From Mobula hypostoma (taxonomy: Eukaryota), in contig NC_086108.1 in NCBI RefSeq assembly GCF_963921235.1, positions 77,440,001 to 77,504,000 on the forward strand: a DNA stretch of 64,000 bases, written 5' to 3'. Below are positions 10,640 to 13,329 of this stretch, piece after piece. A program made the translations under genes and the position numbers. The notes beneath the pieces were generated by a model. The model worked only from the letters and a program-made list of their open reading frames with translations. It ran no database searches and was not told where the DNA came from. The first letter of the stretch is position 1; each line of letters opens with the position of its first letter.

Positions 10640-11285
10640 TAATAGAGTTTCAGATTGTTTGGCCTCCACAAAAACCTTATCTTGACATTACCTGGGATTA
10701 CCTGGAGAGACAGAAGCAAAGAAGACAGCTAAAGTTTGTGGAAGAATTGTGGCAAGTTCTCCAAGATGCTTGCAACAACCTACCAGTCAATTTTCTTATA
10801 AAACTGCACAATGGTGTACCTAAGAGAATTGATGCAGTTTTAAAGGCAAAGGGTGCACACCAAAAATTGACATAAAAATTGCTGGTGAACGCAGCAGGCC
10901 AGGCAGCATCTATAGGAAGAGGTACAGTCGACGTTTTGGGCCGAGACCATTTGTCAGGACTAACTGAAAGAAGAGATAATAACTCATCTTTCAGTTAGTC
11001 CTGACGAAGGGTCTTGGCCCAAAACATTGACTGTACCCCTTCCTAGAGATGCTGCCTGGCCTGCTGCGTTCACCAGCAATTTTTATGTGTGTTGCTTGAA
11101 ATACCAGCATCTGCAGATTTCCTCGTGTTTGTGACACCAAAAATTGAGTTGATTTAGATTTTTACTGTTTACTGATTTTTATAGTAATTTTTTTGCTATT
11201 TAGAAACTTTTCATTTCATTATTTTTGAAAGCATCTTCACTTTACAGATTTTTTTTACATGTGCCTGAGATTTTTGCACAGTATA
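10640..11285 (+). mobile_element. Tc1-family transposon 3' remnant (transposase C-terminus and TIR)
   Basis: WPPQKP..WDYLER...PKRIDAVLKAKGAH resembles Tc1 WPPQSPDLN...AVIKAKGGHTKY; ends ttttgcacagtata. Confidence 0.8.
10871..11133. mobile_element. PLE fold-back mini-element inserted in Tc1, 14-bp TSD
   Basis: TSD acaccaaaaattga at 10857-10870 and 11134-11147; inverted arms each with a decayed hammerhead. Confidence 0.9.
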
Positions 11286-11353
11286 TATATGGAGAATGAA
11301 AATTGAAAAAAAGACGTGGACTAAGATGTTAACTGTCCTGTGCTATCACCAGT

Positions 11354-11427
11354 GGGATCATCAGTTGATCTGCCACCCATCTTCAGGAGTTTCGGCCCGC
11401 TTATGATCAAGACTCCCTCGAGGTTGT
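11354..11427 (-). ncRNA. Second copy of the candidate permuted hammerhead (left arm)
   Basis: Minus strand: ggagtc ttgatc ataagcgggcc gaaactcc ... gatcaa ctgatga tccc. Confidence 0.5.
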
Positions 11428-12313
11428 GGGCCAGCAGTGCTAAAGCACCACCTCCCACTGGTGAGCTTAAAAACTTGGCATCTGCCTCTATCAGAGTTGT
11501 TGGTCACTTCCATCCAACAGATAGTTTGCTCTTCAGGTGTCTATGCAACTACTGAAGGGTTTGCAAAAGATGTATACACTGTCTGACTATCTGCCCCTCT
11601 GGACATACCTGGTCCACACCCATGATGATCCTGTCTCTGCTGCCTCAGCTACAGCCCTGCTGGTTGACTTGATCTCTCTTCTGGTGAAGCCATGGTCATG
11701 CAGCCACTTCTGGAAAGTGAACGCAATAAACCTACGGCAGCCTACTTCGAATGGATAGCATGAGACCTTCCACCCTCTGTCTCTGCACTCTGATCTTAAT
11801 TCTGCATACTTGGTTAACTTGCACTCATGGGCTTCATCGATGTTGTCTTCCCAGGGGACTGGTGGTTATTGGTGAACTCACAGTCCCCTGGGAAGACAAC
11901 ATCGATGAAACCCACGAGCACAAGTTAACCAAGTATGCAGAATTAAGATCAGAGTGCAGAGACAGAGGGTGGAAGGTCTCATACTATCCATTCGAAGTAG
12001 GTTGCTGTGGCTTTATTGCGTTCACTTTCCAGAAGTGCCTCGTGACCTTGGCTTCACTGGAAGAGAGATCAAGTCAACCAGCAGGGCTGTAGCTGAGGCA
12101 GCAGAGACAGGATCAGCATGGGTATGGACCAAGTATGTCCAGAGGGGCAGATAGTCGGACAGTGTATACATCTTTTGCAAACCCTTCAGTAGTTGCATAG
12201 ACACCTGAAGAGCAAACTATCTGTTGGATGGAAGCGACCAACAACTCTGATAGAGGCAGATGCCAAGTTTTTAAGCTCACCAGTGGGAGGTGGTGCTTTA
12301 GCACTGCTGGCCC

Positions 12314-12387
12314 GCCACCTCGAGGGAGTCTTGATCATAAGCGGACCGAAACTCCTGAAGACAGGTGGCAGATCAACTGATGATCCC
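12314..12387 (+). ncRNA. Candidate permuted/pseudoknotted hammerhead ribozyme in the HERO-like 3' UTR
   Basis: GGAGU-C/GAA-ACUCC stem III, UUGAUC/GAUCAA stem I next to CUGAUGA, extra 7-bp helix GCCACCU/AGGUGGC. Confidence 0.55.
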
Positions 12388-13329
12388 ACCGGTGATAGCA
12401 CAGGACAGTTAATATCTTAGTCCACGTGTATTTTCAATTCGCATTCTACATACATACACATACACATATATATATACGGTATACATATATATACACACAC
12501 ACTGAAATTAAATTGCACAGTGGTCATAGTGGGAATTGAACTTGGGATTTGGGGTTATGAATCTATTGACTGAATACCAATATCATACATTATATTTCAA
12601 ATCAAAATGAAATGCCTTTATAATACTAACCTACTAAGCTGTTGTTGCCTGCACTTGCCAGCCTCCTACTCCGCAACATTCTCCAAACTTCAGTCCAAAT
12701 TCCTTTCCATTAAGCTATCATTAGTTTACATCTCACAGTTATCATCGGTACTGAAATTCCCTGACTAAAGACATTCTGTTGTCTCCTGCTTTGAAATCTT
12801 TGATTTATGATTGCCTTTCCTAACTTATTTTTGGTTTGATTTCTATTTCACTTGTTAAGTTTCTTTGAATTGCTTTGAGACATCTTTCTACAGGAAAGCT
12901 GTTGTGTGTAAAGGAAACATACAACATCAGAATAGTTTCCTAACCATACTCATGTGACATTATATCCCAATATAAGTCACCTCCATGATCAATCTTAATA
13001 ATGCCATTGATTAACGTTTTAAGTGTTATTTTGCTAAGCTATACCTGCCACGAACCGTATCCAAATAGTTTTAATCATGAGAACTGATAAAATTAAGGAA
13101 AAAAAATCAGATATGAAAGGAAATTTTGTCATAGTAACAGTAACCACAAAACATTTAGCTTGCTGTTTTAAAAAAAAACACCTGGTTGATTTATGTCCTT
13201 CAGAGAAGAAAATTGCCTGGCTTTGTCCACTCTGGCATGAACTCACTTCAGGGGCAATTAGATATGCATAATACAAGTATTGCTGGTGTTGTCTCCATCC
13301 AATAACAAAGAAGTATTACAATAATTCTA

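Follow-up and report, generated by a model that had tools for sequence, protein, structure and literature searches.

Results

An inverted pair of retrotransposon ends

The window, a 64,000-nucleotide stretch of Mobula hypostoma DNA, contains two copies of the same retrotransposon end, which form an inverted pair and, over 11307-11861 and 11881-12434, are 94-96% alike.

11300..11861, minus strand: left copy, inverted, the same element end; motif at 11464-11346, predicted cut after 11411
11881..12441, plus strand: right copy, 5'-truncated end of a HERO-like RLE LINE, comprising the ORF end, a frameshift near 12039 and the 3' UTR to approximately 12441
12396..12441, plus strand: 3' tail, where insertions terminate; at full-length loci the tail runs on into the 5' UTR

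A preliminary description had placed a hammerhead core in the 3' UTR of an RLE retrotransposon, and the location is correct: every string that it named lies where it had been placed, and the ORF ends at the TAG of 12152-12154. The element is approximately 3.8 kb in length and carries a single ORF encoding a reverse transcriptase (RT; Pfam RVT_1, E 9e-15) whose best solved structural relatives are R2 proteins (E 1e-11), a CCHC knuckle that is weak (zf-RVT, E 5e-5, below cut-off), and an RLE-type motif, of the PD..E type, that was recognized by eye only. The combination of RT, CCHC and RLE in one ORF with dispersed, 5'-truncated copies is that of an RLE non-LTR retrotransposon. The closest named proteins are those of lancelets, echinoderms, fish and molluscs, and the same host range is reported for the HERO clade (PMC4640811, PMC9004415); we infer a HERO-like element from domains and host range rather than from comparison with named HERO sequences.

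A search of genome G000 (3.48 Gb) yielded 1801 candidates for the 3' UTR, and 30 of the 40 that were scored served as family copies. Both copies in the window are dead, 5'-truncated products; the helices termed stem II and P-out below are intact in the left copy and carry one mismatch each in the right copy. The two ends lie head to head with truncation points within approximately 10 nt of each other, and their symmetry (window 11300-12441) extends a few bases beyond the element 3' end into the flank; the arrangement is more suggestive of a fold-back duplication than of two insertions. The window also holds repeat families D1-D8, with many dispersed copies of another LINE/SINE-type 3' end in both orientations, and one family copy elsewhere contains a CR1/L2-like RT fragment of approximately 2.2 kb in the opposite orientation (L032:2592-4765).

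A hammerhead core divided between A9 and G10.1

The full structure spans 12277-12395 (119 nt); the interval first delimited, 12314-12387, holds the core but is narrower than the whole. The parts of the motif in the right copy, all on the plus strand, are the following.

12277..12288, plus: 5' strand of P-out, whose partner is 12384-12395; a 12-bp helix in the family, with one mismatch in the right copy
12289..12308, plus: Pa, a hairpin of 8 bp with a 4-nt loop, lying between P-out and stem II
12309..12313, plus: stem II strand 10.1-10.5, with G10.1 at 12309; the upstream partner, absent from the preliminary description
12315..12320, plus: P0 5' strand, pairs with 12363-12368
12321..12323, plus: kink-turn pattern by the general consensus, non-bulged strand (G2n, A1n)
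12324..12330, plus: stem III 5' strand, with U16.1 at 12329 and H17 at C12330; predicted cut 12330/12331
12331..12336, plus: stem I strand 3' of the cut, pairs with 12371-12376
12337..12342, plus: linker between stems I and II; relatives have 0-8 nt
12343..12347, plus: stem II strand 11.5-11.1, with C11.1 at 12347; A12345 is a rare variant, mismatched in the right copy
12348..12356, plus: GAAA (G12-A15.1) and stem III 3' strand
12357..12362, plus: kink-turn pattern by the general consensus, bulged strand (3-nt bulge, G1b, A2b)
12363..12368, plus: P0 3' strand
12371..12383, plus: stem I partner strand and CUGAUGA (C3-A9)
12384..12395, plus: P-out 3' strand, beginning directly after A9

As read from these letters, the strand order II (10.x), S, G, I plus CUGANGA is a type-SGC circular permutation that has been opened between A9 and G10.1. 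The preliminary description had reported its order, C-B-A, as undescribed; this order is the type SGC of Eckert et al. 2023 (PMC10085705). With the correct partner assigned to stem II, the "two unpaired C" before GAAA that had been held against the motif become C11.2 and C11.1, which are paired, and the topology goes beyond type SGC. The missing A9-G10.1 bond is best explained as being replaced by the junction of two extra helices, P-out and Pa. P0 connects the stem II strand with the stem I strand and differs from the I-II helix of type SGC; the extra helix drawn earlier at this place exists, but it has 6 bp in the family instead of 7, with A at 12314 in 29 of 30 copies and G in one.

A kink-turn consists of a helix, a 3-nt bulge, and tandem G-A and A-G pairs. 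Among 45 non-redundant elements, 29 carry this pattern in full and 10 in part in the loop that separates P0 from stem III, and 6 lack it; the best explanation of the pattern is a turn that would fold the stem III extension back, and with such a kink P0 could lead straight into stem I. Seven loci (L053, L054, L085, L091, L117, L042 and L043) have a bulge or a continuous helix in place of the kink-turn. The 3' UTR of a second family (L127-L147) has a P-out of 4 bp followed by an apparent second kink-turn and a further helix, and was scored by the descriptor as having a short P-out. More CUGAAGA-like words and a small upstream hairpin are seen in the UTR in the window (12205-12211, 12248-12273 and 12355-12361); the word at 12355-12361 belongs to stem III and the kink-turn, and the others were not seen conserved across families.

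Minimum-energy folds of the stretch first described contain no hammerhead (z -2.9 to +0.5), pseudoknots lying outside such models. A competing hairpin that would bury CUGAUGA was rejected, as it is far weaker than P-out (-27.6 vs -44.7 kcal/mol for the nested parts in a typical copy). A search with Rfam 15 gave no relevant match in the window at gathering score, the miRNA-type matches being the fold-back centre, and ribozyme matches were lacking both in 11250-12500 with E values up to 10 and in 20 loci with E values up to 1, in agreement with the earlier view that standard models miss this pseudoknotted hammerhead core.

Conservation and covariation of the helices

Relatives were drawn from 80 of 461 related metagenome loci and from 30 loci of other families in G000; 15 metagenome loci with a short or missing flank were excluded, and 65 with at least 150 nt of flank were kept. 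A descriptor comprising the core and stems I and III only, with H17 left free, matched 52 of 69 3' UTRs (65 metagenome and 4 from G000); the 69 reverse strands gave a single match, and 20 shuffled sets averaged 0.2 matches (maximum 2). The core and stems I and III in S-G-C order, as they had been drawn, thus occur far above chance. Dropping 7 near-duplicates from the 52 left the 45 non-redundant elements. A covariance model produced 72 matches in 90 sources, all in the sense orientation, all after the ORF and only two of them in the window; of the 62 metagenome matches, 41 were rows on which this model had been trained. Together with one extra found by the descriptor, the motif is present in 59 of the 65 metagenome HERO-like RLE-LINE 3' UTRs, and six loci (L077, L099, L109, L112, L116 and L119) have no motif. 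The pattern also matched 45 times in viral contigs, none of them a relative.

In these 45 elements, the pairing partner of the strand preceding GAAA lies 19-24 nt upstream of U16.1. This upstream stem II attains at least 5 bp in 37 of 45 elements (500 swap controls: mean 7.8, maximum 15), and its closing pair, 10.1-11.1, is G-C in 35, G-U in 4 and A-U in 1 of 40. P-out is at least 7 bp in 33 of 45 (control mean 5.5, maximum 12), and in 27 of 30 elements the sequence separating P-out from stem II forms the hairpin Pa. Because the stem II partners in the 45-element counts and in the tree counts were chosen by best pairing, so that these counts lean upward, the stem II test was repeated on an alignment that was not fitted to stem II, consisting of 70 rows aligned by a covariance model holding only P0 and stem III. 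In this alignment the upstream stem II is 74.8% paired with 57 double changes, a result matched by none of 500 shuffles, and slid-partner controls are at most 55% paired. Stem I, absent from the alignment model, is 88% paired, with two-sided changes in 5 of 5 pairs, and stem III, present in that model, is 91% paired, with such changes in 5 of 6. On a protein tree retaining 81 of 83 rows, 37 of which were used for change counts, 12, 8, 8 and 5 concerted two-sided changes are counted in pairs 2-5 of stem II. The core is conserved and all helices covary across relatives, which was the check that the preliminary description had proposed.

If stem II were instead the 3-bp pairing UCC/GGA drawn after CUGAUGA in the preliminary description, the motif would be an ordinary type-SGC hammerhead; its S-G-C block order matches one, and the short pairing can be drawn in the right copy. 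This pairing does not covary: it is 53% paired on the 70-row alignment, where 462 of 500 shuffles score at least as high. It relies on A12345, present in 2 of 30 family copies, 27 of 30 having G, and in the 45 non-redundant elements the nucleotide that follows A9 is able to pair with 11.1 only 6 times. In addition, the strand is used by P-out, and the motif fails the search pattern of Eckert et al., which requires G or UG right after CUGAUGA (PMC10085705). This drawing is largely refuted, and we consider it very improbable.

Catalytic signature

CUGANGA is present in 43 of the 45 elements, the other 2 having U3, and the core columns are invariant or nearly so. H17 is C in 20 elements, A in 13, U in 12 and G in none, and has changed 17 times on the tree; each of the four bases is found at N7; G10.1 has not changed on the tree, and 11.1 has changed from C to U three times. 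In one family U3 occurs together with A8, a core covariation described in active ribozymes (Perreault et al. 2011). Departures from the core comprise U3 with G8 in L046 and L049, which form one lineage, AAAA for GAAA in the three related contigs L095, L098 and L114, and an extra C before GAAA with a G after A9 in L042, L043 and L105. The metal site of the hammerhead consists of the N7 of G10.1 and the phosphate of A9; the invariant G10.1 fits this site, both ligands of which would be kept in the split wiring. The motif possesses a CUGANGA/GAAA/UH core, covarying stems I and III, and a stem II whose closing pair beside GAAA is G10.1-C11.1, and it lacks the joining of A9 to 10.1, directly or via 1-2 nt, that is characteristic of hammerheads as well as the intact block C (CUGAUGA, G or UG, stem II) of type SGC. 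Judged from the aligned relatives, the pattern of constraint is that of the hammerhead, and cleavage in some form is likely; the A9/G10.1 break, which is without precedent in the papers found, could disturb the core.

The fold might alternatively serve as a non-catalytic docking site that the element protein binds to select its own RNA, the hammerhead-like letters being kept for shape and the tandems described below arising by self template jumps. Genomic copies always read through the site, P-out occupies the strand that all described hammerheads use for stem II, and R2 proteins are described as recognizing 3' UTR structure, all of which would suit docking. When the upstream strand is taken as stem II, however, no helix conflicts with the core, and docking leaves unexplained an H17 that is A, C or U and never G, a free N7 among fixed neighbours, the U3-A8 swap and the invariant G10.1. 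We therefore regard a docking function as distinctly unlikely.

Contigs of 4 of 24 public runs (1 of the 24 on record as RNA) have no start or end at the site, assembled contigs being uninformative on cleavage. A jump in depth at 12352 in public contigs results from an LTR retroelement that shares the HERO-like tail. This retroelement (L150-L169; 692 matches in G000) has repeats of approximately 900 bp lying 4.1-4.8 kb apart and RT/RNase H frames on the other strand, and at its LTR edge, antisense to its ORFs, it bears the HERO-like tail from 12352 onward. At its loci, which hold only 12352 onward, the core has decayed in 18 of 20, a weak control that few events may underlie.

Genomic copies extend beyond one unit

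In G000, 827 copies read through the predicted cut, and none begins at 12331 or ends at 12330. Since the patterns used catch approximately 42% of random junctions, and approximately 0.5 copies are expected from the background truncation rate, this null result excludes only a pile-up above approximately 1%; absence of a footprint is expected of a circular template and equally of an RNA that does not cut. Copies had earlier been said to extend 120 nt past the cut, and the extension is real, but its length is approximately 110 nt.

A search for the 5' start returned 234 candidates, of which 40 were scored. Thirty-seven of these 40 copies reaching the 5' start continue upstream into their own 3' tail, and the remaining 3, the query among them, start either at the 5' start or within it. 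The upstream pieces range from approximately 15 to 1638 nt, 33 having been found by BLAST (26-1638 nt) and 4 shorter ones by eye. The junction between tail and 5' start is exact in 36 of 37 loci, and 22 colinear loci measure 3833-3879 nt from junction to junction. Of the 37 pieces, 20 cross the cut, 18 hold the whole motif and none stops at the cut (the nearest are at +17, +18 and -30); no full second unit lies within 3 kb upstream at these loci. The same layout was found in two other families (20 loci), in 3 of 3 full-length copies, with upstream pieces of 29, 249 and 221 nt. No tail among 30 sampled from the second family runs on into a 5' UTR, a comparison of low power given its few full-length copies; one copy of this family, L247, starts within approximately 5 nt of the cut, with an ambiguous boundary.

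At 27 loci the upstream piece and its own downstream end share 50 minority variants where approximately 13 are expected, an excess reached in none of 20000 permutations. Sharing is found on both sides of the cut (25 vs 6.2 and 25 vs 8.1) and holds without CpG sites. The type of tail agrees upstream and downstream in 26 of 30 loci (11.7 expected) and is discordant in 4. The upstream piece thus has the same template as the copy it precedes, and variants shared on both sides of the cut indicate that one stretch of template was read more than once per insertion.

Upstream repeats could also arise, independently of the fold, from later and separate insertions of truncated copies targeted to element 5' ends. 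Target-specific RLE elements are reported to form tandem arrays (PMC4640811), and when target-site duplications were sought round whole units, a long flanking duplication was seen in one locus only, which speaks for such self-targeting. Rare variants common to upstream piece and downstream end contradict it, as do the near absence of full-length copies lacking an upstream piece and a junction without target sequence. Self-targeting is largely refuted and in our estimation barely credible.

Head-to-tail joins are also present in metagenome contigs, at 10 of 72 flanks, although short-read assembly can create such joins. In L071 and L072 (one contig), L047, L064, L057 and L118, the 3' end of one element is joined to a 5' UTR; L071 and L072 are different subfamilies and probably represent an assembly chimera formed via the shared junction. 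Four loci (L204, L209, L213 and L238) are internally deleted units of approximately 1.0-1.3 kb that keep the upstream repeat and the downstream end, and are candidates for non-autonomous small circles. Insertion 3' ends exhibit no extra microhomology: the first T (38 of 54) belongs to the element, and the count at the second base is 10 of 38 (p = 0.75).

Discussion

The fold described here is real and conserved, and is a predicted ribozyme. We propose, with a probability of roughly 0.6, that split-core hammerheads excise a 3.85-kb unit, which would be ligated to a circle and reverse-transcribed more than once round. Full-length insertions carry a piece of their own 3' end upstream, about half of them with the whole motif (18 of 37). 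A read-through transcript of such an insertion would be cut at both motifs, releasing one 3.85-kb unit, whose ends could pair via P-out, II, P0 and III and be ligated to a circle by the ribozyme or a host ligase; the 29 bp of these four helices, by joining the cut ends, would favour sealing. The element protein would then prime reverse transcription at the tail, approximately 110 nt past the sealed site, and copying would cross that site, proceed through the ORF and over the junction, and continue for part of another turn, so that the upstream piece would be rebuilt from the same template.

A circle would account at once for the read-through, the fixed junction, the shared variants and the upstream pieces, and more-than-unit copies are a candidate solution to the extension of copies past the cut. 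Its weak points are that internal priming at the tail gains no support from microhomology and that self template jumping on a linear RNA would yield a similar layout. A circle with more-than-unit reverse transcription has been proposed for Penelope elements by Cervera and de la Pena 2014 (PMC4209133). That an entire clade of autonomous, protein-coding LINEs might replicate through a ribozyme-made circular RNA of approximately 3.8 kb, by means of a hammerhead broken at A9/G10.1 whose extra helices clamp the ends so that the ribozyme itself seals the circle, is a more tentative proposal, to which we would give slightly less than even odds.

The ribozyme might instead be active on a linear RNA. 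The upstream motif would free the element from the host transcript and perhaps aid cap-independent translation, the downstream motif would be inactive or resealed in a protein complex, and the repeats would arise by self template jumps from the 5' end to the same RNA. R2 offers a precedent both for 5' processing and for template jumps, which the R2 literature describes in vivo; self-cleavage is able to drive cap-independent translation (PMC13725137); and the insertion 3' ends are sharply defined, without microhomology. On such a template, however, two identical motifs would need opposite fates, and failed jumps should start at the cut, where none was found versus 827 read-through copies and in none of 37 upstream pieces. 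A homology jump, moreover, would not homogenize the part 3' of the cut, yet that part is homogenized, and recurrent end-to-end jumps reportedly vary at the junction, which here is exact in 36 of 37. We consider a linear RNA unlikely and prefer the circle.

Although the S-G-C order has been published, we found no description of the wiring split at A9/G10.1. Nor did a literature search whose coverage ended short of Repbase Reports, Kojima and Fujiwara 2004, Fell 2025 and subscription papers turn up a paper connecting HERO with partial tandems, with a split core or with a hammerhead. Eckert et al. assume that CUGAnGA and the adjacent strand of stem II are inseparable, which gives six possible orders (PMC10085705). 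If the motif cleaves, the published rule that these form one block is broken, a seventh natural hammerhead wiring exists, and animal genomes contain thousands of copies of the motif that escape Rfam. If the circle exists, an R2-group LINE copies itself in the presumed manner of Penelope elements and retrozymes, without a promoter of its own; the annotation of HERO ends changes, since the "element" is a circular permutation; and the mechanism is relevant to groups mining RLE elements for gene insertion.

Comparison with known systems

The nearest hammerhead is type SGC (HRIMA-1 and variants), which cleaves in vitro at 0.007-0.19 per min and, as reported, is found only in metatranscriptomes, with none in the genomes of known organisms (PMC10085705). 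Common to it and the HERO-like motif are the cyclic S, G, C block order, a short linker between stems I and II, a full core and multiple pseudoknots. In type SGC, stem II directly follows CUGAnGA and there is an I-II helix, whereas the HERO-like motif, which resides in animal retrotransposons, has that strand upstream of the cleavage block and possesses P-out, Pa, and P0 with the kink-turn pattern. The PK hammerhead/pistol of Zhan et al. 2024 likewise has a hammerhead core in a pseudoknotted frame, with a sheared A9-G12 pair on G10.1-C11.1, but A9 and G10.1 stay on one strand, so that its connectivity differs (PMC11300833).

R2, which bears a 5' HDV-like ribozyme, has the same protein architecture, and its ribozyme frees the element from a host co-transcript; the R2 papers describe another ribozyme class, a single 5' copy, a linear RNA and no terminal redundancy (PMC6765202, PMC3414825). 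The HERO clade is described as having a single ORF for RT, CCHC and RLE, dispersed copies and relatives in lancelet, echinoderms and fish, as here, and the available text of these papers mentions neither a ribozyme nor a partial-tandem layout (PMC4640811, PMC9004415). In Penelope-like pseudo-LTRs and retrozymes, as in the HERO-like element, the ribozyme of the 3' repeat also lies upstream, in partial head-to-tail tandems, and both models share a proposed circle and more-than-unit reverse transcription (PMC4209133). Those hammerheads are of type I, are often minimal and dimeric, and occur in GIY-YIG elements or non-coding units (PMC4209133), whereas the HERO-like motif is a split-core form, predicted to be competent as a monomer, in an RT-CCHC-RLE LINE. 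With a partial head-to-tail repeat that carries the ribozyme motif, as in Penelope elements and retrozymes, the HERO-like motif is a predicted hammerhead in a proposed Penelope-type cycle, belonging neither to type SGC, whose block C it lacks, nor to a Penelope element.
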